DNA of 64,000 nt from an uncultured Candidatus Saccharibacteria bacterium (GTDB lineage: Bacteria > Patescibacteriota > Minisyncoccia > Phycocordibacterales > UBA9973): assembly GCA_964625065.1 (NCBI GenBank), contig CAZUZL010000001.1, forward strand, positions 40,132 through 104,131. Direction: 5' to 3'. The position numbers and the translations under genes were made by a program. Position 1 is the first letter of the stretch. Each line of letters begins with the position of its first letter. Below, piece by piece: positions 8,004 through 23,934 of the stretch. Below the pieces are notes generated by a model, which saw only the letters and a list, made by a program, of their open reading frames with translations, did no database searches and was not told the DNA's origin.

Positions 8004-8191
8004 CCCGTTAGAGATAGGAAGTGCCACATTACAATATATGGAACTTCCTATAATTAGATAATTTATAATATTTCGACCATACTACTAGACCCTACAGGCA
8101 CTTCCGTAATATATTTGATTATATTTACATATTAACATAATTTATTTCTTTATTATATTAAGACAAAATAACATCTGTTATCTCAACGGGA
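8001..8191. mobile_element. 191-bp TIR-bounded repeat element (copy A); its terminal CAT is the comEC start codon
   Basis: Left arm catcccgttagagataggaagtgccac (8001-8027), inner partner ggcacttccgta (8097-8108), shared acatattaacata core, right arm atctcaacggga (8180-8191). Confidence 0.6.
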
Positions 8192-8761: not shown

Positions 8762-8880
8762 CCCGTTTAGAAGCAGGTCGCGGTCAATAGAGCGCTATTT
8801 GCTTGATTATATTTATAAATTAATAATATATTACTTTCATAATTTATGCCCGTTACTGCGACCGCGGCTTCTAACGGGAT
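8759..8880. mobile_element. 122-bp TIR-bounded repeat element (copy C, short variant); its terminal CAT is the rnhA start codon
   Basis: Left catcccgtttagaagc-aggtcgcggtc (8759-8785); right gaccgcggc-ttctaacgggat (8858-8880); AT-rich core ttgattatattta shared with copy A. Confidence 0.55.
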
Positions 8881-8918
8881 TCATGTAAAGATTATAGCAT
8901 GAACATATACATAAATTA

Positions 8919-8950
8919 AAAATCACGCAGGTTGCAACTGCGTGATTTTA
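8919..8950 (-). terminator. Intrinsic terminator
   Basis: aaaatcacgcag-gttgcaa-ctgcgtgatttt. Confidence 0.55.
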
Positions 8951-9726
8951 GATATAAAACTTTCTCTAGTTTGGAGGAAAAAGTTAATATATTCCTGGTT
9001 GTTAGACTCGAACAATTCTTCGTGCCTACCAAAAGAAAACTGCACCCTATAGTGGTCTTCGTCGTTCAAAAATTTTCCAATTATTGAATAACTAGTAGTA
9101 GGAAACTTACTATGGAAAACTAAAACGAATAAATTTCTACACATTACATACTGAGATTTTCTATTCTTCTTCTTAATATCGTCAACAGAAATTATTAAAG
9201 CAAAGTATTCTGTGGCTTTTTCTGCAATATGTTTAAGTAACATTTCTGCAAATGCAGCTGGTTCGATATTAAGACTAGAAAACAAAGATTCTTTTTTAAA
9301 TACTACTTTTTCAGCATTATTCCATTCGTCGACATAAGACATGGTAAATTCCAAAAGGTTTTTGTCTTCACCTAAATGTGCATTAATTTTTTTAAACAGT
9401 GCGCTTTTTTCATAAAAATCTTCACTGTAATTCTCTTCTGTTTCAAAAAATTCTACTAACATTTTTCGGTTAATATTTTTTCTAAAAACATTAAAAAGAA
9501 AGAAAACAATTGCGGCTCGCAATGTTTTAAATTCTGCGGACACACCCCTATTTCCTAAAAGGCATTCGTGTTTTATTTCTTTTGTAAAATGCCAGGTTAT
9601 GCTGGGGTTAGATCTGATCGATTTTAAAATCGTTTCTACAACTATTAGTAAACTAACCATGGATAGGTTTGTATTTTGTATTTCCTTATTCGTGTACATT
9701 TTGTTTATTTTTAATAAACAATACAT
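8923..9726 (-). CDS. Hypothetical protein
   Basis: 267 aa ORF with no recognisable motif; the real start may be the internal MYTNKEIQ. Confidence 0.4.
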   Translation of the reverse strand: MYCLLKINKMYTNKEIQNTNLSMVSLLIVVETILKSIRSNPSITWHFTKEIKHECLLGNRGVSAEFKTLRAAIVFFLFNVFRKNINRKMLVEFFETEENYSEDFYEKSALFKKINAHLGEDKNLLEFTMSYVDEWNNAEKVVFKKESLFSSLNIEPAAFAEMLLKHIAEKATEYFALIISVDDIKKKNRKSQYVMCRNLFVLVFHSKFPTTSYSIIGKFLNDEDHYRVQFSFGRHEELFESNNQEYINFFLQTRESFISKITQLQPA

Positions 9727-9729
9727 AAA

Positions 9730-11466
9730 TTATATAGTAATGTCAACTATACGTAAGCGCATTTCTACCTTGCCCATATAACGCGATTCTTCTATATATG
9801 CAGACATATCTATATACATACCTGGTACCAGTTTTTGTTCAAAATCATTCGTAGTTTTGAAAAATGCTATGGCCTTTATCTTTGTTGTTTTTCCGTCATT
9901 GTTATGTGAAACAACTATTTCTAAGTGGTTTTTGTCTTTACCAAATTCCTTTGCTGTTTCTATTAATACACGTTTAAATACGAATAAAGGTTTTTCATTT
10001 GCCACACCAAATGGTGCAAAGTTTTGTATTGCACGATAGACTTCGTTTGTAACTATAGGTAATGTAACTTCTAGTGTTTGTGCACTATCTTTGTCAACAT
10101 TAACTTCAATTACAGCACTACTGTGCACACTGTTTAACACATCTGCCAGTGTATGTATTGCGTCATTACTAACTGAAAAACCTCCAGCACCCTCATGCCC
10201 ACCAAAGGCAACAAATGTGCCTGCCGGTGCAGCCGACATTATAGAAACAAGGTGGCACGTACCGTTAGAACGACATGAACCTTTTATAATTCCAAATTCG
10301 TCGCGTCCCCAAACAAAAACAGTTTTGTCATGTTCGTCTACAATTTTCGATGCAACCAAACCCAGCACACCAATGTTCCAGTTTGGGTTACCTATTACAA
10401 TAACAGGCTGTTCTTCTTTTTGTTTTAAAACTTTTTTTACCTCCTTCATGATAGATGCAACTTTTGTTTTTCTTTCTGTGTTTAAACCTTCTAAGTGTGT
10501 TGAAAATTCTACCGCTTCCTTAGCGTTTTTTGTTTTAAGTAATTTAAATGCAGTCATGGGCGTGTCCATGCGTGACGCAGCATTTAGTCGTGGTGCCAAT
10601 GTAAAAGTTACATCATCTTCAACTATGTGTGCCATGTCTACACCGGCTTTTTGTAATAGTAGTTGCAAGCCAGGTCGGCGAGTTTTCTTTAAAACCTGCA
10701 AACCATAGTACGCCAGTGTTCTGTTTTCCTTCAGTAGTGGTACCATGTCTGACAATGTTGCAATGGCCACCATGTCTAGCAACCATTTTTCCCACCCCAC
10801 GGGTACATTATATTCTGCACGGTATTTATCTAGGAAACCACGAACAAAAGTAAATATTACACCAGAACCACACAACATGTCGTCTGGGTAATTGTTACCA
10901 GTTTGTTTTGGGTTTATAACAGCATATGCATCTGGAATAATTTGTGTGTCTTTATTCTTCTTATCTTTAAGTATTTTCTCTAATGGCAAATGGTGGTCGG
11001 TAATGATTAAATCAATACCCTTTTCTTTACAGTACTTAGCTTGGTCGACAGCGGTAATACCAACATCAATTGTTATAATCAATGTCACCCCCTGACTAAC
11101 CAAACTATCTACAGCAGGTATATGTAAACCGTAACCTTCTTTGTGTCTGTCAGGAATATAAACAACATAATTTGTAAAACCAATAATGTCGAACATATCA
11201 GACAGTACAACTGCACCCGGTATACCGTCGCAGTCGTAGTCTGCATATATGGCAATTTTCTCGCCTTTTGCTATAGCGTTATAAACCCGTTCTACAGATT
11301 TATCCATGTCCTTCATATCTGTTGGGTTGCCTATATTTGTATATTGTGGGTGCAAAAAATCGTCAGCATCAATAGCCGACAAACCCCGCATAGTTAACAA
11401 ATGTTCCACCACTTCGTTCATGCACATTAGTCTACCATGGGGCATAAGTAATACAAAAATAGACAA
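9730..11466 (-). CDS. recJ: Single-stranded-DNA-specific exonuclease RecJ
   Basis: DHH/DHHA1 phosphoesterase motifs (DYDCDGI, ITDHH) in a ~570 aa protein; start possibly at MNEVVEH (11421). Confidence 0.8.
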   Translation of the reverse strand: MSIFVLLMPHGRLMCMNEVVEHLLTMRGLSAIDADDFLHPQYTNIGNPTDMKDMDKSVERVYNAIAKGEKIAIYADYDCDGIPGAVVLSDMFDIIGFTNYVVYIPDRHKEGYGLHIPAVDSLVSQGVTLIITIDVGITAVDQAKYCKEKGIDLIITDHHLPLEKILKDKKNKDTQIIPDAYAVINPKQTGNNYPDDMLCGSGVIFTFVRGFLDKYRAEYNVPVGWEKWLLDMVAIATLSDMVPLLKENRTLAYYGLQVLKKTRRPGLQLLLQKAGVDMAHIVEDDVTFTLAPRLNAASRMDTPMTAFKLLKTKNAKEAVEFSTHLEGLNTERKTKVASIMKEVKKVLKQKEEQPVIVIGNPNWNIGVLGLVASKIVDEHDKTVFVWGRDEFGIIKGSCRSNGTCHLVSIMSAAPAGTFVAFGGHEGAGGFSVSNDAIHTLADVLNSVHSSAVIEVNVDKDSAQTLEVTLPIVTNEVYRAIQNFAPFGVANEKPLFVFKRVLIETAKEFGKDKNHLEIVVSHNNDGKTTKIKAIAFFKTTNDFEQKLVPGMYIDMSAYIEESRYMGKVEMRLRIVDITI

Positions 11467-11542
11467 ATCTGTTGTAAGTGTTATACTAATAAAAAAACAA
11501 ATACTAGTGAGTATTTGTCAAAACAACTAAAATTAAATAAAC

Positions 11543-12133
11543 ATGGATATTATAGATTTTTTCAAAAAGCCTACATTAAAAGAATACAAGGAGGCTTTAC
11601 AAAACATTGCAAAAGTTGATAGTACTTTCACAACATCAGTTGAAGGTTTTACCCACACATCTGCCATCTATGAAGTTATTTTTGAATATTCAAAAATTGT
11701 AAGAATATACACAAATAGCATGGACGACGAGGTTACAGACAGAGATTCGTTCTGTAATTCATTGAATACATTTTTGGAAAACAAAAATAAATTACAAATA
11801 ATTGTTGATAATAACCCGTTTCGTTATGCAAAAACATCTAGAACTATAGATTTAATGACCAGATTTTATTCTAAAAATGAAAATTTAGATATTAGAATTT
11901 CAGATTCTAAATTCAAAAAATCTATTGCGGGGGTTACAAAAAATAACGAAACCTACTATTTTGTTGTTGGTGATGATTCAAAAGTAGCAATAGAAAATAA
12001 TTATACCAAACATGTGGTGCCATTATTTAGCTTCAATAATAAAGAATATGCAAATGCATATAAAAATGTTTTTGATTCACATTTTCTAAAATTACAGAGG
12101 GTATTTATACCACGTAGTCAGAACAAGTATTAA
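11543..12133 (+). CDS. Hypothetical protein
   Basis: 196 aa ORF, very AT-rich, followed by a terminator. Confidence 0.4.
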   Translation: MDIIDFFKKPTLKEYKEALQNIAKVDSTFTTSVEGFTHTSAIYEVIFEYSKIVRIYTNSMDDEVTDRDSFCNSLNTFLENKNKLQIIVDNNPFRYAKTSRTIDLMTRFYSKNENLDIRISDSKFKKSIAGVTKNNETYYFVVGDDSKVAIENNYTKHVVPLFSFNNKEYANAYKNVFDSHFLKLQRVFIPRSQNKY

Positions 12134-12150
12134 AGTACTAAAATAATTAA

Positions 12151-12186
12151 CAAAACCGATTCATATATATATGAATCGGTTTTTAA
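12151..12186 (+). terminator. Intrinsic terminator
   Basis: aaaccgattcatatatatatgaatcggttttt. Confidence 0.6.
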
Positions 12187-12321
12187 ATACAATAAAAATC
12201 TTATAACCTGCCTAGGCATATTTCGAAAAATATGTAGGAAGGCCTTGTTACACAAAGAATAGCAAATAAATCTAAAATACACAAGAAAATAAAATTATAA
12301 GCATAAATTAGATGATAAAAC

Positions 12322-13032
12322 TTAAAATGTATTAGAACTTAGTACATTTATAATTTCAATGGCCAGAGGTTCTCTTTCGTATTTCAAACTTTTTTGAAGT
12401 TTATCCATTATATCCCTAGAAGGAATTGCTAATTTTGATATTTCAGAAATAAATACAAACTGCTCTTCGGTTATTTCCGGTGGCAGACGTTTTATTAATT
12501 TAAGAATCTTTACGTCTTCTAAGTTATTTGCAGATAATTTTAAAAAATCAAGCTGATCTTTAATTAAAACCAAATTATCTATTAGAGTATCGATGGTATC
12601 TGTAGTTTTCTGTTTTATAGGACCTGCTGGAAAATTACCTAATATCTTAAAATATTCAGGAACAACTTTTTTAAATGAAGTATATTTGTAGTTTTTATTT
12701 CCTTCAATTAGAATTTGTTTTTCAACATTTTCTATAACTTCTTTCATTATAATAATTATTGTATTATTATAATTTAAAAGACGAAATAAATACTTTTTTC
12801 TTAAGCTTTTAAAGTAACGAGGAATTTTCGGAAGAATATAAACCTGGACAACTAAATAGATTGATAAGATCAAAATTAAAGTTATTATTGATTTTTGGTA
12901 ATAATTCACCAAAAACACTATTAGGCCTACTATGAATACAATAAGTGGGTAAAGAATGAATAATGGATAAAACGTAGAATTAGTACCCTCATTAATGGCC
13001 TTTTGAGATAGGTAAGATTTAGATTGTGTCAT
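12322..13032 (-). CDS. Hypothetical membrane protein
   Basis: 236 aa with two N-terminal TM helices; extremely AT-rich coding sequence. Confidence 0.4.
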   Translation of the reverse strand: MTQSKSYLSQKAINEGTNSTFYPLFILYPLIVFIVGLIVFLVNYYQKSIITLILILSIYLVVQVYILPKIPRYFKSLRKKYLFRLLNYNNTIIIIMKEVIENVEKQILIEGNKNYKYTSFKKVVPEYFKILGNFPAGPIKQKTTDTIDTLIDNLVLIKDQLDFLKLSANNLEDVKILKLIKRLPPEITEEQFVFISEISKLAIPSRDIMDKLQKSLKYEREPLAIEIINVLSSNTF

Positions 13033-13255
13033 ATTATGGATTTTTAAAGAGTGAAAATTAGATTATTTGAATATATAATAACATTAAATATCAATTTAAG
13101 CAAGTTTTTACATTACTACAAAATCTTGCATGTTTTATATGAACATGCTAAATTGTTAGTAATAAATTATATTTGCTTATCTGTAAATATAAAACTGAAT
13201 TGGTTATTAATATAGTTTTTGTTCGTTGGAATAAAATAGTAAATGATTCCTATTT

Positions 13256-13447
13256 TAGAAATAATAGGATCAGGGTAAACTAGAGTTAATAACTCTGGGG
13301 TTGTAGGATGCTTTGATTTGTGTCAAGTATTCCTAAGTAGCACATTCAGGCCAAATTTGTGAATCGACGGGTGAAATCACCAAGTCCCGTAACCCTAAAC
13401 CTTTGAACTTAAACTTTAAAACTTCGCTACGATTTGGCGGAGTTTTT
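13256..13447 (+). ncRNA. Candidate small structured RNA of unknown family
   Basis: An island of higher GC inside very AT-rich DNA; several local hairpins (agagtta/taactct, ggtg/cacc, acggg/cccgt); ends in a cuucgc/gcggag stem plus UUUUUUUAUUU; no ORF. Confidence 0.3.
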
Positions 13448-13527
13448 TTATTTAATTTTTATTCTGATAAAAAATCTAATACTAGTCTCAGTTAACATTA
13501 TTTACTTTGTAAATTATCAATACTGAA

Positions 13528-14217
13528 TTACCTTTTATAATCCACAAATTTCCCAGACCAAGTATATGCTGAAAGTATTCCTATGAATGAACCAGCAATA
13601 AACCAAAATATAAGTTCTTCAACTGGTATACCCATAGTTAAAATTCCTGATAGATATCTAAAATCATAAGTGGCTGAAACCCAGCCAGGAGTAGTTATAA
13701 TAGTTGTCCAATACAATGGAAGAATACATATAGTGGTCAAAATACCTGACCATAGACTTGGAATAATGAGGTCTTTTCTTATAATCCACATAAAAACCGT
13801 TGCCAATGTTGTAACTAATGTAAATGATTGAAATGATGTAAATCCTATATATTTAATAAGTACATGAATAACTGTCAGAACTACTACCGAAAAAAGGATT
13901 CGAAAAAGTGAATATATACTTTTTTGACTACTAATAATCTTTTTCTTGAAAAAGACTTGATAAATAACCATCATAACTCCACCAGCACCAAAACCAGTAA
14001 AAAAGTCTTCTACTCCTATTCTTGTTCCTGTTATGGTTTCTGGGTGCCACCAGTCCACTGTCCACCAAATGTAACCAGTGACTAGTGATAAAATTCCATA
14101 TAATGTAGCTGTATAAATCATAAATTTTCGTAAATCTTTTCGTAGAATATAAAAGATTGTCCAGAAAATCATCCCAACGATTACTAATATAAGGTATCCA
14201 AAATGAATAGGTAACAT
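13528..14217 (-). CDS. Membrane protein with a lycopene-cyclase-like domain
   Basis: 229 aa polytopic protein with two PxEE-like repeats (IGVEDFFTGF; GIPVEELIFWFIAG). Confidence 0.45.
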   Translation of the reverse strand: MLPIHFGYLILVIVGMIFWTIFYILRKDLRKFMIYTATLYGILSLVTGYIWWTVDWWHPETITGTRIGVEDFFTGFGAGGVMMVIYQVFFKKKIISSQKSIYSLFRILFSVVVLTVIHVLIKYIGFTSFQSFTLVTTLATVFMWIIRKDLIIPSLWSGILTTICILPLYWTTIITTPGWVSATYDFRYLSGILTMGIPVEELIFWFIAGSFIGILSAYTWSGKFVDYKR

Positions 14218-14252
14218 AATATGATTATAACTTATAGATATATTTTTAGCAC

Positions 14253-14729
14253 TTAAATATGTGATCTTAACTGCCTTACATCTTCTAAATCAACTTCACG
14301 AGCAAGTTTTGTTTTATACGCAATCAAAGATTTGATGTTTTCTACAGGTATTTTTCTACCATATACTTCCTTTATCGTTATGTTATCTAAACTACTATCA
14401 AGATATTCCCATCCTTTTGTTTGTGTATTAAAAATTTTTGCACCCGTTCCTGCAATATCTATGTCCTGACCTTCATAATTTAATGTCATTAAAAGTAAGT
14501 CCCAGTTTTCATCTTTGTATTGATTAGGTCCATACACAATATATGGTCGTATTTCATCAGACTGTGCTATTTGACCAATATCAACATCAGACACTTCTAT
14601 GTCAATGTCCGCAAGTTCTCTATTAACACCATACACCCTAGTAGCAAAGCCACCTGAAACTTTATATTTAATATTATTTTGCTCAAGAATATCTATTATC
14701 CAATTGAAAGCCACTTTAGTATTTTTCAT
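14253..14729 (-). CDS. Lnu(A)/ANT(2'')-family nucleotidyltransferase-like protein
   Basis: SGGFATRVYGVNRELADIDIEV nucleotidyltransferase motif; length 158 aa and C-terminal region are collinear with lincosamide nucleotidyltransferases. Confidence 0.55.
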   Translation of the reverse strand: MKNTKVAFNWIIDILEQNNIKYKVSGGFATRVYGVNRELADIDIEVSDVDIGQIAQSDEIRPYIVYGPNQYKDENWDLLLMTLNYEGQDIDIAGTGAKIFNTQTKGWEYLDSSLDNITIKEVYGRKIPVENIKSLIAYKTKLAREVDLEDVRQLRSHI

Positions 14730-14762
14730 AATATTTTAATACTACCACATTAAAATAAATAA

Positions 14763-14797
14763 AAATATTCTGGTGTTTAAGCCAGAATATTGCTTTT
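14763..14797. terminator. Intrinsic terminator
   Basis: aatattctgg-tgtttaagc-cagaatatt-gctttttt. Confidence 0.5.
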
Positions 14798-14809
14798 TTA
14801 AAAAATTGC

Positions 14810-15016
14810 TTAAAATTTTCTTTTCAACATCTCAATAGTGTGTTTTTTCCTCTGAGAAATAACGGCTTTATGAATTCCAAGTTTTATTAGCTCATCTTTT
14901 ATACCTGGTAGTTGAGAAAACTTTTCATGAGTAACAATTGGACCTGCGACAAAAACAAGCACTCCATCTTTCCGAGTTGGTGTTAGTTTTACGGTTTTGA
15001 ATGTTCTAGGCTTCAT
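14810..15016 (-). CDS. Small hypothetical protein, possibly a gene fragment
   Basis: 68 aa ORF, no motif. Confidence 0.25.
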   Translation of the reverse strand: MKPRTFKTVKLTPTRKDGVLVFVAGPIVTHEKFSQLPGIKDELIKLGIHKAVISQRKKHTIEMLKRKF

Positions 15017-15186
15017 AATCTAAAATTTTAATTTTTAAAATATATAAATTTATCTACTAATATAATACCATTTTATTTAATTTTAAACAAGATGTGCGTA
15101 TAGGTTCAATAGCTTGGCACCATTTGATAAAATGTTATCAAATAAATGTGATGCACAGCAACAAAAAAATTAAGTTGCAATTTATC

Positions 15187-15744
15187 TTAATTTAACTCTA
15201 TTTCCCCAAAATCCTTTATATATTCCGAATGGTTAGTTAGTTCTACATTACGTAGTATTGCCAAAGCAGATTCACGCATAGCAATACCCTCACTAGATTC
15301 GACACATTCTTCTAAAACATATGTAAAAAAACCGGCGTCAAAACTGTCAAAAGCAGTGGCCATAACACAGTCGTTTGCATCTACACCAACAATATGGACT
15401 TCTTGTATATTATTTTCTTTAAATAAAGTAATTAAATCTTTGTCGCCCTGAAATGCAGACTTAGTTGTTTTTGTAACTAGAATTGTATTTTTATTTTCTA
15501 ACTCTGACTTAATTTCAGGTATTGTTGGTTCGATTTTAAAAGTCCAGTTAGTTTGGATGTCCCACAACGAACCAGTATCTGCGTGGAATACAGCTTCTAC
15601 ATATAAATTATAGTTTCCTTTTTGTATCACCGATTGAACATTTTTTATAATGTAACGAGTTCTTTCGGGTAAAAACCCTGTTTGCATATCAACAATTATT
15701 AATGCTCGAATTTTGTTTGGGTTAGGAATTAGTATGGAATTCAT
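15187..15744 (-). CDS. Isochorismatase-family cysteine hydrolase (nicotinamidase-like)
   Basis: ALIIVDMQ and VHIVGVDANDCVMATAFDSFDAGF motifs. Confidence 0.75.
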   Translation of the reverse strand: MNSILIPNPNKIRALIIVDMQTGFLPERTRYIIKNVQSVIQKGNYNLYVEAVFHADTGSLWDIQTNWTFKIEPTIPEIKSELENKNTILVTKTTKSAFQGDKDLITLFKENNIQEVHIVGVDANDCVMATAFDSFDAGFFTYVLEECVESSEGIAMRESALAILRNVELTNHSEYIKDFGEIELN

Positions 15745-15756
15745 ATTTATATTATA

Positions 15757-16521
15757 TCATTTGCTGTGTGTTTTTATATCTATTGCTAAATGGTCAGACA
15801 CCCTATTGGGCAAAACTGTGCATAAAATATCGTTTGTTTTTAATGTACTAATATCAAAATACACATGGTCGGTACGGAACTTAAAACTAATACCAAAACG
15901 TGCAAAAAAACTATTTACCCTGTTAAGTAAAAAAGAAGATTTTTCTGTATATCGACTATCCAAAGTTGGGCCAATATTTTTACTAACACGAATAAAATCT
16001 GGTAAAAGTATTTTTTCTATTTCAGAAACTTCACCCGGAAAACCAGTATTAAAATCCCCCGCAAATACAATGGGTATATTGTTTTTATAATTAGAAAGAC
16101 TTTCTTTAATTATTTCTATTTCCTTTTTTCGTATACTTGTTTTTATGCCGGAATGTAGATGTACAGAACCTACCAATACACCCTGCCCCTGCACGGCAAA
16201 AATACCGCCAACAAAACCCCAACCACGCATTGGCATATTCGGGTCGAAATTTGCAAATGATATAAACAACGTATCTTTTAAAACAAATGCTTTTTTATAT
16301 AAAATACATACACCTGTATTAGTGCTGAGATTTACATCAAATGGACGCACCACAATATACGAATGTTCAAATTGTGTAATAATAGAAACAACTTTTGCAT
16401 CAACTTCCTGTAGTAGAACAAAATCGTATTTATCGCTTACCAACACATCATGTATAAAATCTCCGAAACTTGACTGATACGCCTTTTGTGTATTTAGTGT
16501 TAATATATTTAAGTTTTTCAT
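15757..16521 (-). CDS. Endonuclease/exonuclease/phosphatase (EEP) family protein
   Basis: LQEV, GDFN and SDHLA motifs in a 254 aa protein. Confidence 0.65.
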   Translation of the reverse strand: MKNLNILTLNTQKAYQSSFGDFIHDVLVSDKYDFVLLQEVDAKVVSIITQFEHSYIVVRPFDVNLSTNTGVCILYKKAFVLKDTLFISFANFDPNMPMRGWGFVGGIFAVQGQGVLVGSVHLHSGIKTSIRKKEIEIIKESLSNYKNNIPIVFAGDFNTGFPGEVSEIEKILLPDFIRVSKNIGPTLDSRYTEKSSFLLNRVNSFFARFGISFKFRTDHVYFDISTLKTNDILCTVLPNRVSDHLAIDIKTHSK

Positions 16522-16592
16522 AATTATTTTCTAAAACTATTTCAACAATCTTTTACTGAAGATCAAGTTTTTTAAGTTATGTTTCGTGTGTT

Positions 16593-17603
16593 TTATAATA
16601 CTATATTAGGATCAAGAATATTAATTAGTTTTTCTCTATTTTCTGTTAGATAATAAATTTCCTCTAAATTTGTTTTATATGTAATATCATTCCTAAAGTC
16701 TTCTTTTACATAATGCAGATATTCACGCCATATAGAATAGAAAGATTTTGTGTAGTACAACTCTATTGCACTTCTAAATTCAGTAGATGTAAATGAATAA
16801 ATATCAAAATATGACTTTATAAAAATCTTTGCTTTTTCTATATTTTCTAAATTATATCCATGCCAAAAACATGTAAGCGAACAGGAACGAACTAATTCAT
16901 ACATTCTAGGTGTTGGGCCTGCCATGTCTAAGTCAAAAATATTAAGAATTTTTCCGTCTTCGGTAAAAAATACATTGTCAGGATAATAGTCACCAAAACA
17001 AAGGTGTCTGTCATTCATGTTTAAAGATTCAAAAGTAGTTGTACATTCTGATACAAGTTTTTTCTTTAAATTCAATCCGTCTATACTCAAAACATCAAAG
17101 TCATTTTCTGGTTTAATAATTTTTAGTAATTCTTCAATTTCAAAAATTATGTGTTCTTTTTCCTGTAATTTAAAATGCGTATCTTCATCATATTTACCGA
17201 TAATTCCATTTTTTGTTAACAAATGAGCCTTAGCTAATTCACGCCCCATAACTTTAATAATATCTATAGGTATATTTCCAGTTTCATACTGTTTTCCACT
17301 AATAAATGGGTAAAGCACGTAACATGAGTGGTTTATTACTTCATGCAAATTACCATTCTTACTTCTTATTGGGCCGATAACAGGAATTTTATTTTGAATA
17401 AAAAAATCTTCAACTTTTTCTATAGTTTCAATTCTATCTGCACCGCTTATTCTGTGTTTTTTCAAAAAGAAAACACCATTACCAGTTTCTACCTTGTAAT
17501 TATAACTAGAAAAACCCTTTTCAACCTTAGTAAAAACAACGGGTTCAACGAGCCAAAACATTTCTATAATTTTTTCTGATATATTTTGATTCATATTATG
17601 CAA
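16593..17603 (-). CDS. Aminoglycoside/macrolide phosphotransferase (APH/choline-kinase) family protein
   Basis: Brenner-like HLCFGDYYPDNVFF and IFDLDMAG motifs; 336 aa. Confidence 0.65.
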   Translation of the reverse strand: MHNMNQNISEKIIEMFWLVEPVVFTKVEKGFSSYNYKVETGNGVFFLKKHRISGADRIETIEKVEDFFIQNKIPVIGPIRSKNGNLHEVINHSCYVLYPFISGKQYETGNIPIDIIKVMGRELAKAHLLTKNGIIGKYDEDTHFKLQEKEHIIFEIEELLKIIKPENDFDVLSIDGLNLKKKLVSECTTTFESLNMNDRHLCFGDYYPDNVFFTEDGKILNIFDLDMAGPTPRMYELVRSCSLTCFWHGYNLENIEKAKIFIKSYFDIYSFTSTEFRSAIELYYTKSFYSIWREYLHYVKEDFRNDITYKTNLEEIYYLTENREKLINILDPNIVL

Positions 17604-18822
17604 CTATAGCATTTTTCAGATACTTTTTCTCCACGAATAATATACTAAACATTGCCAACGTTATTACTGTTAGAACACTGAACGTTGTTGACGTACCACT
17701 GATATCCAGCATGACACCAATTATAATCGGGGCAACTATTTCACCCAAACACCAACTTACTGAAAGCAGCCCAGACACGCGACCCAAATGTTCTTTGGTA
17801 ACTATTGTCGTCGTAATACCATCGAAAGCAAAGCTGACTAAATTAAGAGCAAGAGACAAACCGAATGCCAATACTACACTTGCAATCACACCTTTAATAA
17901 AGATTAAGCACACCAGACAGAAAACAAGTGCCGACATACCGCACATAACGGCTTTACTACGGTTCCGATCAGCAAGAGCACCAACATAGGCACTACACAC
18001 TGACGGCAAAGCGGTTGCAGCACCTATAAGGATAACCCACGTTATACTTGCCCCGTTCGTATATGCATCAAGCGGTATAACAAAACCGGCAACAACACTA
18101 ACAAAGCCCATAAAAAATGTGGCCAGACTGATCAATCTTACACCCGGGCTCCAACTTTTTATTTCATTCCATAAACTATAAAAAACGCCATCATTAAAAA
18201 CATTTTTTATACCTGCTTTCGCACCAACATAACCAGGATCGCGATTTAGTGTTAGGAACATGAAAAGACAAATAATAGACGTTGGCAATATCACAAGAAA
18301 GAGCGAATGAATGGCAAAATAATTTACCAAGAAAATACTCGCTACGACACACACTATCCAAAAAATACTGGTAACAGCGTCGAAATAGCCAAATATGCGC
18401 CCAATAGATTCAGATGCTGAATGTCGGCGTATATAGGTACTGCGACCAACACTATCGAATGCATAACCCACCCCGTTTAGTAGTCGGGCAATAACGACAA
18501 ATATAACTGCCCCCGTAGCACCTGCCCAGAAATATGCAAAACCGATAAATGGATAAAAGAGAACACCTATAATCAATACCGTTCGGGCAGAAATTTTATC
18601 TATCAACAGCCCCACAAACGGCACTGCTAGAATAAAGGCGATGTCATACACCGAACGCAATAACCCAGTTTCTGCATATGAGTTAGCAAAAGAAAGAAGA
18701 AATATCGGTATCAATGCCTCGACTACGCCCCAGCCCATCCAACGAATAGTGGTGCCCCAGATAACAGTATTTACATCACTGGGAATTGATCGTTTTTGTA
18801 AAAATGGTTTAAAAAAAGACAT
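17596..18822 (-). CDS. MFS transporter
   Basis: About 12 TM helices and MFS signature loops; overlaps the downstream kinase by 8 nt, which suggests an operon. Confidence 0.8.
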   Translation of the reverse strand: MSFFKPFLQKRSIPSDVNTVIWGTTIRWMGWGVVEALIPIFLLSFANSYAETGLLRSVYDIAFILAVPFVGLLIDKISARTVLIIGVLFYPFIGFAYFWAGATGAVIFVVIARLLNGVGYAFDSVGRSTYIRRHSASESIGRIFGYFDAVTSIFWIVCVVASIFLVNYFAIHSLFLVILPTSIICLFMFLTLNRDPGYVGAKAGIKNVFNDGVFYSLWNEIKSWSPGVRLISLATFFMGFVSVVAGFVIPLDAYTNGASITWVILIGAATALPSVCSAYVGALADRNRSKAVMCGMSALVFCLVCLIFIKGVIASVVLAFGLSLALNLVSFAFDGITTTIVTKEHLGRVSGLLSVSWCLGEIVAPIIIGVMLDISGTSTTFSVLTVITLAMFSILFVEKKYLKNAIVA

Positions 18823-18863
18823 AGTATCGTACTTGTGAAATATTTAATAATAACATTTTTTAC

Positions 18864-19766
18864 TTATTCATTCACTCCTATTAATAAAAGTCCTGAAATA
18901 ATAATACAAAAGATTAATACTTTCTTTATAACTACCTTACGGTTTATGTCCTCTCTGAACGCTTCGGGGTTGTATTTTTTAACAGCTACAGTATACAACA
19001 AAACAAAGATTGGTATAACCATACCAATACCCTTTACCAAACTTACAGGGGCCAATTCTATAGCGTACATTTCTGCACCAACTGCTAAAAATGTAAAAAA
19101 TTCTTCTAAAAAGAAAAGTTTAAAATACTTACGGTAACTATCTTTTTCTTCTTTTAGTTGTGTTCGCAAACTAGGCATAGCAAGTATGAAAGCACAGCCG
19201 ATAATACCTGATGTAATCAATTGCCCACCTATAGCAGTACTCCACCCTATACCGTGTTCAAACATGTATTTATACAAGATACCGTCAATGGCAAGTATGG
19301 TAGATGCCAGCACTATAAGGTAAAAAGCTTTACTTAACTTTAAAGTTTTAATTTTACCTCTAAAAGCCAACAAGACATTCCCTAAAATAATAATACCTAT
19401 ACCAATATATTCGCGTAATTGTAGAACTTCACCAATAAAAACAAAGGCGAATATTGGAATTATTATTTTACCGAAAGAAAAAAATGCAGATACAACAGAA
19501 GTGTCTTCTATTTTTAAAGATTTGTAATATGGGTACAAATACAAAAGGTTCGTTAAGCCAACACCTATAAGTGGCCAAATTAAGTCAAAAGTTGGTAATA
19601 CTGGTTTTTGAATAATAAACAGTATTGGCACAAATACAAAGTTACACAAAGATGCAAAAAATATCAATGGTGCAATATTCTTAAAACCTTTATTACTAAA
19701 AAATTCATCAAAAATTTCAGCTACTGCATACAAAGCTGGGGCCAGAAAAGCAAAAAATATCCACAT
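18864..19766 (-). CDS. EamA/DMT-family permease
   Basis: 300 aa with about ten TM helices in two EamA-like halves. Confidence 0.65.
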   Translation of the reverse strand: MWIFFAFLAPALYAVAEIFDEFFSNKGFKNIAPLIFFASLCNFVFVPILFIIQKPVLPTFDLIWPLIGVGLTNLLYLYPYYKSLKIEDTSVVSAFFSFGKIIIPIFAFVFIGEVLQLREYIGIGIIILGNVLLAFRGKIKTLKLSKAFYLIVLASTILAIDGILYKYMFEHGIGWSTAIGGQLITSGIIGCAFILAMPSLRTQLKEEKDSYRKYFKLFFLEEFFTFLAVGAEMYAIELAPVSLVKGIGMVIPIFVLLYTVAVKKYNPEAFREDINRKVVIKKVLIFCIIISGLLLIGVNE

Positions 19767-19773
19767 TTGTAGA

Positions 19774-20244
19774 TTATATCACTTTTTTAATGTTTACATA
19801 ATGACCTAAAAACCACTTTAATTTATCTTGTAAATACTTGGTATTTTTAATGGTTAATTGTTGGCCCTCATATTTTATTATAACAACTGTACCTTCTAAC
19901 CTTTTATTAAAATCAAGCGAATCGGAAATGCTATCTTTTTCTATTTTAAGTATTATTAATTCTTTGTATTTATCTGATATAAAATTACCATCAGAATCTA
20001 CCCAACTAGATCTAGATTTCAATAGTGATTTTTTTCTAATTGGTGATGTAATAAAAGCACCTAAGACACCTAACAAACGAGTAAGTATATGCACATATAC
20101 AGGCATACTAATTCCAATAATATAAAGACAATCTTTAGTAACTATAATGTCTGCCATTGAAAAATTATTGTTTTTTATTGAATCTGAAAAATTAACAACA
20201 AATGTCCAATTTGGAATATATAAAAATGGTCTATATTTTTCCAT
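19774..20244 (-). CDS. Hypothetical protein
   Basis: 156 aa ORF, no motif. Confidence 0.4.
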   Translation of the reverse strand: MEKYRPFLYIPNWTFVVNFSDSIKNNNFSMADIIVTKDCLYIIGISMPVYVHILTRLLGVLGAFITSPIRKKSLLKSRSSWVDSDGNFISDKYKELIILKIEKDSISDSLDFNKRLEGTVVIIKYEGQQLTIKNTKYLQDKLKWFLGHYVNIKKVI

Positions 20245-20247
20245 AAT

Positions 20248-20445
20248 TTAATATGAATATATTTTAATTACTTGAAGTATAAAGAAAACAATAAGACCTA
20301 TGGTAAAAATTGTATTTATTTTTCTATATTTATTAGATTTTTTTATTATCTGCTCGTTTCGCAACAAGGCTTGTTTTTGATTTTCAACAGTTTCTTTTTG
20401 TAAATCACGAATTTCTTCTAATATTTTTATAGTTTTATCTTCCAT
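20248..20445 (-). CDS. Small membrane protein
   Basis: 65 aa with a coiled N-terminus and one C-terminal TM helix. Confidence 0.3.
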   Translation of the reverse strand: MEDKTIKILEEIRDLQKETVENQKQALLRNEQIIKKSNKYRKINTIFTIGLIVFFILQVIKIYSY

Positions 20446-20465
20446 ATAATTTAGTTTAGTTAATT

Positions 20466-21617
20466 TTATTTCAACGCCTTTATACCAACTAGTGTACCTT
20501 TTGCCAGGAATTCTAATGTTGCGCCACCGCCAGTAGAAACAAAAGTAAATTTATTTGCCATGCTTGATTGGTTTATAACATCCACTGTATCGCCACCACC
20601 TACGATACTAACAGTCTTTTGTTTGCCTTTGGTTTGACTTGCTAATGCATTTAACAAATCTATAGTGCTTTTTGTGTGGCCTTTTTCGTACCAGCCTAAT
20701 GGGCCGTTCCATACAACAAGTTTTGTTTTTGCCATTAATGTAGTTAGTAGTTTAACTGTTAGTGGGCCTACGTCTACTATAGTGTCGCCCTTTTGAACTT
20801 CAGCTACATTTACAGCCCAAGAATTTTTACCCCTACTATCTGTGCGGTTAACTATAACGTCGATTGGTGTTAGAACTTTTTTATTTTTAAGTACACCAGT
20901 CAGTGGTGGAGTATTTTTATCTATAACAGATTTACCAACTTCGTAACCTTTGGCTTTTAAAAAGTTGTTTGCTAATGCACCGCCGACAAACACCATATCT
21001 GCAGTAGAAACATATTTTTTAAGTAATGGCATTTTAGTTTCAAACTTTGCACCGCCTAGTATAAATAGGAATGGTTTTTTAGGTTTCAATGCACTAGACA
21101 AATTTAAAATTTCTTTTTCCATCTGTAGTCCTGCATATGAAGGCAGTAGTTTAGGTAAACCAACTATAGACATATGTGCCCGGTGCGACACTGAAAATGC
21201 GTCGTTTACATATATGTCCCCTAACGATGCAAAGTCACTAGCTAGTTGTTTGTCATTTTCTTTCTCACCCTTCCATCGGCGGATGTTTTCTATTACCATT
21301 ATGTCGCCTTCGTTCATTAGTACTATATTTTGTACAATGTCATCGAAATTTGTACTTTTTTCTAATGTTACAACTGTGTTTGGTATTAATGTTTTAAGGT
21401 AGTTAACCATAGGTAATAAGGTTTGTTTACCATCGTCCCCAGCATGTGCCAACACAACAACCTTGGCCCCCTTCTCGGTTAAGGTTTTAATAGTTTGCAG
21501 TGACGCAACAATACGAAAACCGTCGCCAACTACACCATTTACAATTGGCACATTCCAGTCTAGTCGTACTAGTGCTACTTTATTTTTTAATTGTTTTAGT
21601 TTTTTGAGTGTTTGCAT
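20466..21617 (-). CDS. pgk: Phosphoglycerate kinase
   Basis: RLDWNVP, VGGGDTV and GGGATLEFLAKG motifs. Confidence 0.92.
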   Translation of the reverse strand: MQTLKKLKQLKNKVALVRLDWNVPIVNGVVGDGFRIVASLQTIKTLTEKGAKVVVLAHAGDDGKQTLLPMVNYLKTLIPNTVVTLEKSTNFDDIVQNIVLMNEGDIMVIENIRRWKGEKENDKQLASDFASLGDIYVNDAFSVSHRAHMSIVGLPKLLPSYAGLQMEKEILNLSSALKPKKPFLFILGGAKFETKMPLLKKYVSTADMVFVGGALANNFLKAKGYEVGKSVIDKNTPPLTGVLKNKKVLTPIDVIVNRTDSRGKNSWAVNVAEVQKGDTIVDVGPLTVKLLTTLMAKTKLVVWNGPLGWYEKGHTKSTIDLLNALASQTKGKQKTVSIVGGGDTVDVINQSSMANKFTFVSTGGGATLEFLAKGTLVGIKALK

Positions 21618-22377
21618 AGTTTTCAGTATTAATTAATATTGTATCAAAATGTTTTGGCAATAGTGATTCGTGTCCTACCAGATACCCGTCGACACCACCA
21701 TGTTCTATAAACCCTAACGCGTCCTTCGGTGTTACAGACCCACCATACAGCACCTGCACATTGTGCGCATCTGCTGGGCTGAATATGTCGCTTATAACTT
21801 TACGTATAAAAAGAACAACTTCAAAACATTCAGCTGGTGTTGCAGGGCGCGGGGCGTCTTTGCCTATAGCCCATACAGGTTCATAAGCAATTACAATTTG
21901 TTCTAAAGACTTACGTGGTAAGTTACCTATAGCAGTTGTTACTTGTTCCTTTATAGTGTGCCAGAAAAAACCCTGAGTGTCGCGCAACATTTCACCAACA
22001 CATATTACAGGCACCAGACCGTTTGTAACTGCTGTTGTAACCTTAGCACGTACTGTTGTGTCTGTTTCACCCCTGGCACGAACTTCACTGTGGCCAACTA
22101 TAGTATAAGTAACACCAAACTTTTTAACCATCGACGCAGAAACTAAGCCAGTATGTGCGCCTTCTGTTGGCACCGCAATGTCCTGTACACCTAATATACA
22201 TTTTTTAGAGGCTAGTTTTTTCAGGTCAGATAAATACACATAAGGCACACAAATAACTGTTGAAACGTTTTTCAATTTAGAAGATACTTTTTTAATACCA
22301 GTAAAAATCTTCTTCGCCTCTACTGTAGTTTGGGGGTTTAGTTTCCAGTTAGCTATAATCAGGTAATTGTTTTTCAT
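21580..22377 (-). CDS. tpiA: Triosephosphate isomerase
   Basis: ANWKLN, VGHSEVR, IAYEPVWAIG and YGGSV motifs; the C-terminus is extended and overlaps the pgk start by ~38 nt. Confidence 0.9.
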   Translation of the reverse strand: MKNNYLIIANWKLNPQTTVEAKKIFTGIKKVSSKLKNVSTVICVPYVYLSDLKKLASKKCILGVQDIAVPTEGAHTGLVSASMVKKFGVTYTIVGHSEVRARGETDTTVRAKVTTAVTNGLVPVICVGEMLRDTQGFFWHTIKEQVTTAIGNLPRKSLEQIVIAYEPVWAIGKDAPRPATPAECFEVVLFIRKVISDIFSPADAHNVQVLYGGSVTPKDALGFIEHGGVDGYLVGHESLLPKHFDTILINTENYANTQKTKTIKK

Positions 22378-22421
22378 TATGTTATTGTAACATTTAGAAT
22401 GTGTGGCTTCAATGCATGCAA

Positions 22422-22460
22422 AAATAAACCGCAGTTACATAATAACTGCGGTTTATTATC
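22422..22460 (-). terminator. Intrinsic terminator
   Basis: aaaccgcagttacataataactgcggtttatt. Confidence 0.6.
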
Positions 22461-23934
22461 TTTCTTCCCATAGTATGGTTTGGTATTGGTCAGAAGTAAG
22501 TGGAAAAGAAGGTGGTGCCCCGTATAAAAGATTTGCATCGTATGTAATAGTACGTGTGTCGTATCCTGTGCCATCTGTATATGCAAAACCATAACGTTGG
22601 TTTGAACCTATCATTCCATACAAACGTAGAGAATTACGCAAATATCCCGTACCACAACTGCTAGCGTAGTACGAACGCCCAACACGACCGTTTTGAGCAA
22701 TCAATGCAGCATCTATACGTAAGTCGTTTGCACTACTTAAACCTAAGTTTATATTATTTTGTGCAACTAAACCAATTACATCTTGCCCATCGACATTCGT
22801 GTAACGTAGATCGTTATTAATAATAATACTTTTACGTTTTGTTGGGTCATCAGGAAAACGCCCCGCGGCAATAGTAATACGTGCGGAATTAATAGTTCCG
22901 TCTACCCATACGTTATCTTCAACAAAGATAACCCCATTTACAGGAAATACCACGTTGCCAGCAGTAAGTGTTTCTGTTTTTATAGTCCAAGTACTCCAAT
23001 CTAATTCATTATTTAAATTAGTACACCCGTTTGGTACAGCAGTTAGTGCAGTTACTGTATATATGTCATATGTATCGTTTGTTTTTAAAACAATATGGTA
23101 ACCCTGTTTACCTGAAGCTGCGTAATATTTACCATCGGTTGCAGAACCTAATGTTTTTAATTTAGACAAATCAGTTGTTATACCAGCAAAATCAACAACC
23201 GGCACTGGAAACTTTCTTCCCGCCATAAACACATCGGACCGGTCGGCAACTGCGTTGGGCGAAGCTTCGGCACTGCGGTATGTGTCGTTTACTGTTGTAC
23301 CAACACCTGTGTCTGTGTCGTGCGTGTGCACTGCAAATTCTGAACCTCCGGTGTGGTCAGGGTCGTCGTACGTAGTCAACGCACTAGTAACCAGATTATG
23401 GGCTATACCGTCTAGTCGTATGCCAAAATTTGAATGTAATGGTCCAAATATTTCTGTACCTTCACCAAAACGCATATTGTCATTAGCTACCACAGAAAAC
23501 TTAGCAAAAGAAGGTATAGCAAGGTCAGATTCGATAGTGCGCTTAACATTTGCCACACCAGTTAATGTTCCTGTGGAAAATATTTTTACCAACGTAGACC
23601 CAGCTGGTGGCGGGGTTATTGTTAACGAATATTGTCCTATCTGGTTTCCGTCGCTATCATAAAAAGCATGCACATATGGACCATTTGTATTTGTTCCATC
23701 TTTGTAGTCAGTGTTATTTTTAGCCAAATGCCATCTGTAGTAATCAATACCGGCTTCGGCAATTTGTAATGCTTGTTCGCGTTGCAATGTACGTCTGACG
23801 GCTGCAACACTAGTTGTAGTCCACATTACAAAAGCCAATACCACTATAACGGTTATAGCTGTAAATATAAGTACACCTAGCAACATAAATGCTTGGGGTG
23901 TTTGAATATTTTTTTTCAAATTTATATTTACCAT
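22456..23934 (-). CDS. Pilus-associated protein with N-terminal membrane anchor (putative minor pilin/tip protein)
   Basis: 492 aa with an N-terminal hydrophobic helix, Thr/Asn-rich beta-type sequence, last gene of the pilB-pilC-pilin operon. Confidence 0.45.
   Translation of the reverse strand: MVNINLKKNIQTPQAFMLLGVLIFTAITVIVVLAFVMWTTTSVAAVRRTLQREQALQIAEAGIDYYRWHLAKNNTDYKDGTNTNGPYVHAFYDSDGNQIGQYSLTITPPPAGSTLVKIFSTGTLTGVANVKRTIESDLAIPSFAKFSVVANDNMRFGEGTEIFGPLHSNFGIRLDGIAHNLVTSALTTYDDPDHTGGSEFAVHTHDTDTGVGTTVNDTYRSAEASPNAVADRSDVFMAGRKFPVPVVDFAGITTDLSKLKTLGSATDGKYYAASGKQGYHIVLKTNDTYDIYTVTALTAVPNGCTNLNNELDWSTWTIKTETLTAGNVVFPVNGVIFVEDNVWVDGTINSARITIAAGRFPDDPTKRKSIIINNDLRYTNVDGQDVIGLVAQNNINLGLSSANDLRIDAALIAQNGRVGRSYYASSCGTGYLRNSLRLYGMIGSNQRYGFAYTDGTGYDTRTITYDANLLYGAPPSFPLTSDQYQTILWEER

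Follow-up and report, generated by a model that had tools for sequence, protein, structure and literature searches.

The closest described counterparts of the locus considered here are the genomic islands of Prochlorococcus and the hypervariable regions of SAR11, which are strain-specific blocks found at fixed positions between core genes and often devoid of an integrase; many of the Prochlorococcus islands abut tRNA genes. We present a comparable element from a 64,000-nucleotide stretch (hereinafter the window) of contig CAZUZL010000001.1 in the metagenome-assembled genome GCA_964625065.1, where 9,023 bp of AT-rich DNA (window 11440-20462) lie between the core genes pgk and recJ. The closest matches of this pgk, for which a look-up by exact sequence finds no record, come from metagenome-assembled genomes labeled Candidatus Nomurabacteria (98% amino-acid identity), Minisyncoccia, Paceibacterota, and Parcubacteria and, judging by these sequence matches, the host is a Nomurabacteria/Paceibacteria-type patescibacterium of the candidate phyla radiation (CPR). 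We consider it quite probable that the block is a strain-variable, integrase-free flexible genomic island that occupies the pgk-recJ spacer of a CPR chromosome and was assembled and exchanged within the CPR gene pool. It displays each of the hallmarks of a flexible island, viz., absence from the locus in close relatives, a fixed site with variable content, and deviant composition. The fixed core-gene site, the atypical composition, the gene-by-gene mosaic, and a cargo rich in transporters and modifying enzymes are all shared with the islands of Prochlorococcus and SAR11, from which it differs in being found in a CPR genome, in the pgk-recJ spacer, without a tRNA nearby, and in its small size (9 kb). 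Its presence/absence pattern among relatives, deviant GC content, and accessory cargo are also reminiscent of the classical integrase-borne genomic and resistance islands; however, it has no integrase, tRNA target, direct repeats, conjugation or phage genes, or recognized resistance gene. A search of the literature recovered no paper describing this pgk-recJ island.

The pgk-recJ spacer in the window and in relatives

The ends of the island were set by blastn comparisons with the two nearest relatives, namely Kiruna_bin-09228 (L001; 92-93% nucleotide identity) and the next closest genome (L002; ~81% nucleotide identity). In these genomes pgk and recJ are separated by spacers of merely 56 bp, containing a terminator hairpin, and 79 bp, respectively. 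The alignment with L001 pairs window positions 8834-11439 with its positions 13817-11212 and 20463-22398 with 11155-9220. The likely start of recJ is an ATG at 11424 or 11418, and the homology to L001 reaches 11439, ~16 nt upstream of the start; as it resumes 3 nt past the stop codon of pgk on the other side, the 9,023 bp exactly replace the intergenic spacer. The extent of 11543-20445 given in the original prediction captures the first and last ORFs (open reading frames) of the island, but the indel itself extends from 11440 to 20462.

A wider survey gave a comparable picture. A genome scan with pgk, taking one genome per species, yielded 80 loci, which together with a metagenome scan made a total of 160 pgk-centered loci; the metagenome scan added synteny and no further strains, with no relative closer than 53% amino-acid identity. 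In 114 of the 160 loci recJ lies downstream of pgk on the same strand, at a distance of 33-4,873 bp (median ~560 bp), and the 9-kb gap of the window is the largest among the compared loci. None of the 12 island proteins is matched by tblastn in any of the 160. The original prediction had taken the stretch for horizontally acquired, accessory cargo, a view that would have to be given up if related genomes had the same genes with the same composition. The synteny instead supports it: pgk and recJ are adjacent in L001 and L002, the 114 loci are without island genes and, as the same genes and composition are absent from the relatives, the block is accessory. The larger pgk-recJ gaps of other lineages often hold an opposite-strand ORF of ~135 aa with a histidine-triad-like HxHxH motif (identified by eye), as seen in the 2.5-3.5 kb spacers of L007, L009, L013, L015, L028, and L137, and in some lineages this ORF is accompanied by a gene for a major facilitator superfamily (MFS) transporter, a CapA-like protein, or an M18-aminopeptidase-like protein. 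No such ORF occurs at this position in the window, L001, or L002.

The island is also set apart by its composition, with a GC content of 0.301 vs 0.382 in the rest of the window (37.1% for the window overall). All 370 other 9,023-bp intervals of the window fall in the range 0.360-0.399, none being below 36.0%. In profiles computed over 1 kb and 400 bp the GC content runs at ~0.38-0.40 across recJ, lies at 0.24-0.33 at 11.4-17.6 kb and 18.8-20.4 kb, and is 0.36-0.41 in pgk, while the median GC content at third codon positions (GC3) is 0.22 in the 12 island ORFs vs 0.308 in the 49 other ORFs (Mann-Whitney p = 2.7e-6). The profile and the GC3 test bear out the marked drop in composition between recJ and pgk that had been called earlier from the sequence, including its extreme near 12.2-13.2 kb, which we place at 12.0-13.2 kb (0.24-0.27) and which is equaled at 19.6-20.4 kb (0.24-0.26). 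The compositional exception is the MFS gene (17596-18822), with host-like values of 0.407 for GC and 0.34 for GC3.

All the genes of the island but one are oriented as pgk and recJ. The terminator found in the L001 spacer is missing in the window and the first island gene starts 20 nt past the stop codon of pgk; on sequence grounds, transcriptional read-through from pgk probably drives a first operon coding for the 65-aa, 156-aa, EamA, MFS, kinase, EEP (endonuclease/exonuclease/phosphatase), and isochorismatase-family proteins (Table 1). On the other side, the promoter region of recJ now lies within island DNA.

Mosaic structure and variant islands

Comparison with related contigs shows the island to be a mosaic, whose gene-sized pieces differ in their presence between closely related strains. 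The most informative of these contigs is L082, an independent assembly from SRR25018320 that begins in the 3' end of pgk (91% nucleotide and 97% amino-acid identity) and continues into a variant island with the order pgk, a gene for a 327-aa ART-PolyVal protein, homologs of the 65-aa (67% amino-acid identity) and 156-aa (44%) proteins, an opposite-strand gene for a 186-aa protein, and homologs of the EamA permease (98% amino-acid and 94% nucleotide identity) and the kinase (84% amino-acid identity). In L082 the stop codon of the EamA gene and the ATG of the kinase gene are 7 nt apart, without an MFS gene in between. The absence of the MFS gene in this variant identifies it (about 17595-18863) as a secondary insertion in the window, and hence the pairing of the kinase with the MFS gene as recent. 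The very uneven divergence of adjacent genes between the window and L082 reveals recombination. The ART-PolyVal gene, which codes for an ADP-ribosyltransferase domain and directly follows pgk (L082 213-1196), and the opposite-strand 186-aa gene (L082 1941-2501) have no counterparts in the window. The segment with the 65-aa and 156-aa genes (window 19774-20445 vs L082 1246-1902) is flanked by pgk and EamA genes whose products are 97-98% identical; the low identity of the pair itself points, from the sequences compared, to either allele replacement or fast diversification.

A second indel is nested in the recJ-proximal part of the island. The contig L177 matches window 13073-13108 (100% identity) and 14268-14763 (93%) with 42 unrelated nt between the two matches, and a 2,325-bp ENA contig has the nucleotidyltransferase gene followed after 100 nt by the gene for the 236-aa protein. 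As both are without 13109-14267, this segment is a separate piece, which comprises a lycopene-cyclase-domain gene and a 495-nt non-coding stretch beside it. A further MFS-less variant might be represented by a contig of 3,726 bp: in cluster look-ups, homologs of the EamA, kinase, EEP, and isochorismatase-family proteins with ≥90% identity are each listed with 3,726 bp as the longest contig, a length too short to accommodate an MFS gene in addition, if all four genes share one contig. Another record, P0160, is a 102-aa variant of the 196-aa protein that is found on four contigs and diverges after residue 87; its divergent C-terminus matches nothing among the compared loci, and it suggests that other strains have a further breakpoint within the island. 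In contrast to these variants, L081 (SRR13208906) reproduces 3.6 kb of the window (15443-19078) exactly. In all, island variants are found in at least four or five datasets. The nested mosaic, the host-like composition of the MFS gene and its status as a secondary insertion, and the lycopene-cyclase domains in one of the supposed hypothetical proteins had all been overlooked in the original prediction.

The 495-nt gene-free gap between the genes for the 236-aa and the lycopene-cyclase-domain proteins contains a candidate structured RNA (Table 1). Its fold has a z-score of -3.86 over 236 nt and -5.18 over 376 nt, with no shuffled sequence being as stable, as against -2.0 for the opposite strand. 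It has no Rfam match at E ≤ 10, a covariance model built on the single sequence finds no second copy in the window and 178 related loci (2.4 Mb), and the core motif was not found in IMG/VR viral contigs.

Table 1. Positions in the window of the island, its flanking genes, the features within it, and other strain-specific segments
Feature	Position	Strand	Remarks
Whole island	11440-20462	none	Nearest relatives have a pgk-recJ spacer of 56-79 bp instead
recJ (left flank)	9730-11424	-	Pfam DHH, DHHA1, RecJ_OB; 94% amino-acid identity to L001
196-aa protein	11543-12133	+	Sole + strand island gene, divergent from recJ; sub-threshold DUF7931 match, E 2.3e-4, 21 bits vs 27
Perfect 16+16 nt palindrome	12152-12183	both	A and T runs at its sides; bidirectional terminator, with the 196-aa and 236-aa genes converging on it
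236-aa protein	12322-13032	-	Two N-terminal hydrophobic helices; near-identical copy adjoins nucleotidyltransferase gene on ENA contig
Nested sub-insertion	13109-14267	none	1,159 bp; candidate RNA and lycopene-cyclase-domain gene; 42 nt instead in another strain
Candidate structured non-coding RNA	13243-13455	+	Four-way-junction core 13243-13398, then intrinsic terminator 13418-13446 and T-run
229-aa polytopic membrane protein	13528-14217	-	Two Lycopene_cyc (CrtYc/CrtYd-type) domains; Pfam PF18916 E 2.5e-12, two stretches
158-aa minimal pol-beta-type nucleotidyltransferase	14253-14729	-	TM1012 / LnuA / ANT(2'') / MenT1 fold group, from profile, motif, and fold
Hairpin with T-runs on either side	14764-14791	both	Terminator-like; between 68-aa ORF and nucleotidyltransferase gene
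68-aa ORF	14810-15016	-	Orphan gene or not a gene
185-aa isochorismatase-family cysteine hydrolase	15187-15744	-	Pfam E 2.4e-22
254-aa EEP-family enzyme	15757-16521	-	Pfam E 9e-7, 29.3 bits vs cut-off 24.5
333-aa APH-fold small-molecule kinase	16593-17594	-	Pfam APH (PF01636) E 9e-17, 62.1 bits vs cut-off 23.2
408-aa MFS_1 transporter	17596-18822	-	Pfam E 3e-30; best homologs 53% identical, mostly CPR
300-aa EamA/DMT permease	18864-19766	-	Pfam E 8e-13, two stretches
156-aa protein	19774-20244	-	No family match
65-aa protein	20248-20445	-	C-terminal hydrophobic helix
pgk (right flank)	20466-21617	-	Pfam PGK E 2e-104; homology of relatives restarts 3 nt past stop codon
Strain-specific segment	5754-6611		GC 0.334; 226-aa orphan gene; missing from L002
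Strain-specific segment	8750-9746		GC 0.306; 267-aa gene, weak DnaA_C-like helix-turn-helix; missing from L002
Strain-specific segment	29417-30140		GC 0.305; GRDP-like 148-aa gene; missing from L001 and L002
Strain-specific segment	31410-32442		GC 0.305; 312-aa orphan gene; missing from L001

Cargo proteins and their possible functions

The cargo appears to be a loose collection, comprising two permeases, an APH-fold kinase, an EEP-family enzyme, a cysteine amidohydrolase, a nucleotidyltransferase, and a lycopene-cyclase-domain protein, which probably, albeit tentatively, work on compounds that pass between the cell and its host or surroundings. No single pathway has been demonstrated for them, and no recognized resistance determinant is among them. 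Pfam and NCBIfam profiles confirm the family labels previously given to RecJ, Pgk, and the isochorismatase, EEP, APH, MFS_1, and EamA proteins.

The nucleotidyltransferase belongs to a family of 126 homologous clusters (42-87% identity) that is conserved in CPR and in which G26, G27, D41, and D43 of the motif G26 G27 ... D41 I42 D43 are invariant; it looks catalytically competent. Elsewhere its homologs stand alone in unrelated, mostly housekeeping neighborhoods. With regard to a possible MenAT-type toxin-antitoxin pair, their upstream neighbors vary (a 49-aa ORF, a Fic gene, or a 108-aa gene), the window having at this position the 68-aa ORF without homologs. A sequence-only search of the PDB recovers nothing significant, and the relationships emerge only with the family profile and an AlphaFold2 (AF2) model (pLDDT 96.7). 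The profile matches LnuA (4FO1) with E 1e-4 over the N-terminal 60 residues and TM1012 with E 8e-4 over the full length, whereas in Foldseek the model is closest to TM1012 (TM-score 0.79-0.80; 2EWR, 2FCL), followed by MenT1 (0.71), LnuA (0.63), and ANT(2'')-Ia (0.60). PF10706, the family of ANT(2'')-Ia, is weakly matched by 32 of 47 homologs at E ≤ 0.01 (best 1e-6); the window protein itself has no Pfam match at this threshold, and hence lies below the gathering score of PF10706. The Lnu(A)/ANT(2'')-like label of the original prediction is accordingly right at the level of the fold, as the profile match to LnuA, the PF10706 matches, and Foldseek agree. With TM1012, LnuA, ANT(2'')-Ia, and MenT1 (2EWR, 4FO1, 4WQK, 8AN4) the protein shares its size, fold, and GG...DxD active-site motif, but it is only 13-20% identical to them and belongs to a well-conserved CPR family of its own, with the nearest structure, TM1012, being of unknown function. 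Distant relatives (30-37% identity) are found on replicons of Vibrio, Photobacterium, Pseudoalteromonas, Halomonas, and Deinococcus, some of them annotated by PGAP as 'MazG-related protein'. An example with this annotation and 32% identity from a Vibrio alginolyticus plasmid (L178; NZ_CP099958.1, 45610-54062) lies within a series of small genes, most of them on one strand, that resembles an integron cassette array.

The kinase family is in contrast rare, with 18 homologous clusters in 5.8 billion proteins, and appears to be restricted to CPR, the only organism named being Candidatus Paceibacterota. K45/K46, D202, N207, D221, and D223 are invariant across the 18 homologs and, with this catalytic set intact, the protein is predicted to be an active enzyme. 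The stop codon of the MFS gene and the ATG of the kinase gene are 1 nt apart. An upstream TTG, which would result in an 8-nt overlap with the MFS gene, was rejected as the start since the database gene call (P0001) and the homologs favor the ATG and there is no exact record of the TTG form. The sequence alone again recovers nothing significant from the PDB; the family profile matches CotI/YtaA (1e-10), APH(9)-Ia (1e-6), and homoserine kinase (2.5e-6), and Foldseek with the AF2 model (pLDDT 91) gives the N-acetylhexosamine 1-kinase NahK as the best match (TM-score 0.76-0.77, 13% identity), all others, including APH and Mph, being at ≤0.67. The fold and the Lys/Asp/Asn/DxD set are shared with NahK (4OCJ), CotI/YtaA (2Q83), homoserine kinase II (2PPQ), APH(9)-Ia (3I0O), and the amicoumacin kinase AmiN (6SUI), from all of which it is set apart by low identity (13-17%) and the small size of its family. 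The homologs occur in variable accessory neighborhoods that are different in every genome examined, viz., MFS-SET-kinase-CBU_0592 with CYTH, GNAT, NUDIX, and EamA genes (L083), kinase-AAA_33-CBU_0592 (L084), kinase-SET-three GNATs (L085-L087), and kinase-MazG with PIG-L and GT4 genes ~1 kb upstream (L088-L090). In L085-L087 the kinase gene has a 300-aa gene upstream of it, which was considered as a homolog of the EamA gene, but the two are unrelated by BLASTP.

These two enzymes bear on the resistance or detoxification flavor that the original prediction saw in the block. Under a reading of this kind, the kinase and the nucleotidyltransferase would inactivate antibiotics of hosts or neighbors, such as aminoglycosides, lincosamides, or macrolides, and the MFS and EamA proteins would serve in export. 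In its fold the nucleotidyltransferase is akin to LnuA and ANT(2'')-Ia, and the kinase to APH(9), the amicoumacin kinase, and Mph, which agrees with such a role, as do the intact catalytic residues of both. Nevertheless, the NCBIfam Lnu(A)/Lnu(E) models score 13.5-14.2 bits (E 0.04-0.05) against cut-offs of 300-350 bits, no APH or Mph model matches the kinase at E ≤ 0.1 (only CotS, homoserine kinase, CotI, and YsxE do, all far below their cut-offs), and the nearest structures are TM1012 and a sugar kinase rather than resistance enzymes. The family of the nucleotidyltransferase is moreover conserved across more than 120 CPR clusters in those housekeeping contexts, and plasmid relatives are few and distant (≤37% identity for the nucleotidyltransferase and a single one at 19% for the kinase), with none under an annotated resistance gene. 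As for the genomic association, the MFS gene immediately precedes that of the kinase, the EamA gene lies directly upstream, and an MFS gene is also found near the kinase homolog of L083, but the pairing is a recent one that is lacking in L082. The resistance reading is hence rather unlikely; none of the above tests, i.e., NCBIfam scores, nearest structures, and plasmid relatives, supports the flavor, which is unproven and, on present evidence, has no advantage over metabolite salvage or a set of genes without any connection.

Salvage of host metabolites, which would offset the reduced biosynthesis of an epibiont, is in our view just as doubtful a function. Here, a compound such as an amino sugar or another host metabolite would be imported by the permeases, trapped through phosphorylation by a NahK/AmgK-like anomeric kinase, and processed by the hydrolases. 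The structural match of the kinase to NahK stands clear of all others and fits this idea, although at 13% identity it amounts to a global likeness of fold, and the sequence profile favors CotI/YtaA and APH(9) instead. The distant kinase homolog in L088 lies ~1 kb from the genes for a PIG-L deacetylase and a GT4 protein, with one opposite-strand gene between, but the neighbors of the kinase (SET, GNAT, MazG, AAA_33, CBU_0592) change from genome to genome. The isochorismatase-family protein, which has its Asp (IVDMQ) and Cys (DANDCV) within family-typical motifs, is closest in the PDB to the Pyrococcus nicotinamidase/pyrazinamidase (E 1.3e-7), nicotinamidase being a salvage enzyme; together with the MFS and Lycopene_cyc families it recurs in L176, but the island genes come and go independently of each other among strains.

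This recurrence bears on the 229-aa protein, a singleton at 90% clustering. It resembles the heterodimeric and fused CrtYc/CrtYd lycopene cyclases (PF18916) in combining two Lycopene_cyc domains in one protein, with L176 having a split form, but differs from them in that no carotenoid or isoprenoid genes are found near it. The L176 neighborhood (1254-4777 of CAZNAZ010000009.1, another CPR genome) comprises same-strand genes for a GNAT, an MFS transporter (54% identity to that of the island), an isochorismatase-family protein (50%), Lycopene_cyc proteins of 101 and 107 aa, and a 209-aa protein. As MFS and isochorismatase-family genes are among the neighbors in both instances, a role other than carotenoid cyclization is likely for the Lycopene_cyc proteins. 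The three families thus occur within a few kb of each other in two unrelated genomes (n = 2) and may constitute a conserved functional module, with L176 likewise showing no carotenoid genes in the vicinity. A more far-reaching, and in our judgment decidedly unlikely, proposal is that the cargo represents a CPR-specific, cassette-wise 'host-interface kit' shuffled by natural transformation with no need of a site-specific recombinase, in which this module and a NahK-like kinase/permease module would deal with host metabolites or lipids, or with antibiotics of the host, one of the cassettes additionally specifying a novel structured RNA of ~200 nt.

The remaining proteins are less tractable. The EEP-family enzyme, which is without an obvious signal peptide, has a PRK05421-like match in NCBIfam (E 3e-9) and none in a sequence search of the PDB. 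The 196-aa protein has no match in PDB, PADLOC, or PHROG; its 90% cluster has four other sequences, of which two are full-length or nearly so and two are truncated. The 236-aa protein has no match in Pfam, NCBIfam, PADLOC, or PHROG. The 68-aa ORF finds only itself at E ≤ 1e-3 in an exhaustive HMMER search of 1.84 billion representative proteins and has no Pfam match at E ≤ 1, so that the earlier description of it as a fragment is not borne out, there being no homolog of which it could be one.

Origin of the island and its significance

The apparent lack of an integrase or of a repeat boundary, pointed out earlier, holds in scans for domains, tRNAs, and repeats: no recombinase, integrase, or transposase domain is found in any island ORF with Pfam, NCBIfam, or PHROGs, no tRNA or Rfam family lies in or beside the island (the nearest tRNA being at 45.1 kb), and no direct or inverted repeats flank its boundaries. 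With respect to an integron cassette array, neither an integrase domain nor repeats common to the intergenic regions were found, though no dedicated attC model was run. The named homologs of the nucleotidyltransferase, kinase, and MFS proteins come from Parcubacteria, Paceibacterota, Wolfebacteria, and the 'Patescibacteria group', with a Binatia MFS protein at 43% identity as the one exception. The window additionally codes for competence components, namely ComEC (6558-8027) and PilB, PilC, and pseudopilins (23944-29449). In Saccharibacteria, ComEC-dependent natural transformation with homologous recombination has been demonstrated, using homology flanks of ~0.5-1 kb (PMC10633639). We therefore propose, conditionally, that the island would have been put together and passed around within the CPR gene pool by cells that take up free DNA and integrate it through RecA-type homologous recombination, in which the conserved pgk and recJ would serve as anchors. 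Single genes would be added to or dropped from intergenic spacers through illegitimate or short-homology recombination, and a site-specific mobile element would not be required.

Comparable composition is seen beyond the island. All the remaining parts of the window that L001 or L002 lacks (Table 1) are likewise AT-rich, which indicates that ~30% GC marks the flexible gene pool of the lineage rather than one foreign donor. The 267-aa gene at 8750-9746, inserted between recJ and rnhA, is present in L001 at 87% amino-acid identity; many other relatives have no more than ~50 bp between the end of recJ and the start of rnhA. Downstream of tpi, window 22399-26374 differs from L001 (3,976 bp vs 3,267 bp), with L002 aligning throughout; it codes for a 492-aa protein without a Pfam match and two large pseudopilin-like proteins with N_methyl motifs, and the adjoining PilC gene has 68% nucleotide identity to L001 vs ~92% elsewhere. 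This segment may encode pilus surface components in a divergent allelic form.

Several observations weigh against the proposed origin. No imported recombination tract is discernible in the flanks, whose identity to L001 is roughly flat at 0.85-0.99 per 150 nt, with 0.87 in the pgk-proximal 150 nt; the route by transformation and recombination is thus one that we infer. Competence has been demonstrated only in Saccharibacteria and not in this class. The polarity, i.e., gain over loss, is based on parsimony, and close genomes are few. The junction on the side of recJ is seen in this assembly only, that on the side of pgk being independently supported by L082. Finally, the recurrent associations in L176 (MFS, isochorismatase, and Lycopene_cyc) and L083 (MFS and APH) may hint at a cargo less arbitrary than a loose collection.

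The question of polarity raises the alternative that the block was ancestral to the genus and was deleted independently in the lineages of L001 and L002, which we regard as improbable. CPR genomes do evolve largely through reduction, the empty sites are clean, and variants of the island are present in several samples (L081, L082, L177, and the ENA contigs). However, this account would need at least two precise deletions, each of which restored a short spacer, and is at odds with the want of any island gene in all 160 pgk-centered loci (0/160), the GC content of the block, 8 points below that of the core with GC3 shifted likewise, and the nested indels, which reflect ongoing gain and replacement.

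A decayed mobile element, be it a prophage, an integrative and conjugative element, a transposon, or an integron array, or an anti-phage defense island stripped of its mobility genes, is highly improbable. The L082 variant encodes an ART-PolyVal domain, as is usual for the polyvalent proteins of mobile elements, the nucleotidyltransferase has a fold similar to that of the MenT1 toxin and a small ORF upstream, and its distant relatives include that in the cassette-array-like run on the Vibrio alginolyticus plasmid. Yet, besides the missing integrase, transposase, recombinase domain, tRNA, and terminal repeats, a PADLOC scan of 10 island proteins, i.e., all but the two permeases, gives no match at E ≤ 0.1, the phage signal amounts to three weak PHROG matches, all to families of unknown function, and scans of IMG/VR give no relative of the kinase family and one partial match for the nucleotidyltransferase family. 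A chimera of assembly or binning, in which an AT-rich fragment of another organism was misjoined between pgk and recJ, is extremely improbable despite the metagenomic source of the genome and a recJ-side junction without independent confirmation, because L082 joins the 3' end of pgk to an island variant on one contig of an independent assembly, L081 reproduces 3.6 kb of the interior exactly, the variants recur in several datasets, both junctions fall exactly within the intergenic spacer, and only one gene runs against the orientation of pgk and recJ.

The flexible, integrase-free island that we favor is a known kind of feature and leaves the current understanding unchanged, but few such islands have been delimited so precisely in this lineage. 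Functional tests are needed before APH-fold and LnuA/ANT-fold genes of CPR bacteria are counted as resistance genes. Three items are flagged by the analysis, namely the TM1012-like nucleotidyltransferase family, the CPR-restricted kinase family, and the association of MFS, isochorismatase, and lycopene-cyclase-domain proteins. More generally, the locus provides an example, delimited to the base pair and with nested indels in four to five independent datasets, of strain variation in the very small genomes of the CPR/Patescibacteria, in which gene-sized AT-rich cassettes are slotted into the spacers between core genes without the machinery of mobile elements, a picture that fits the competence-driven recombination of Saccharibacteria.

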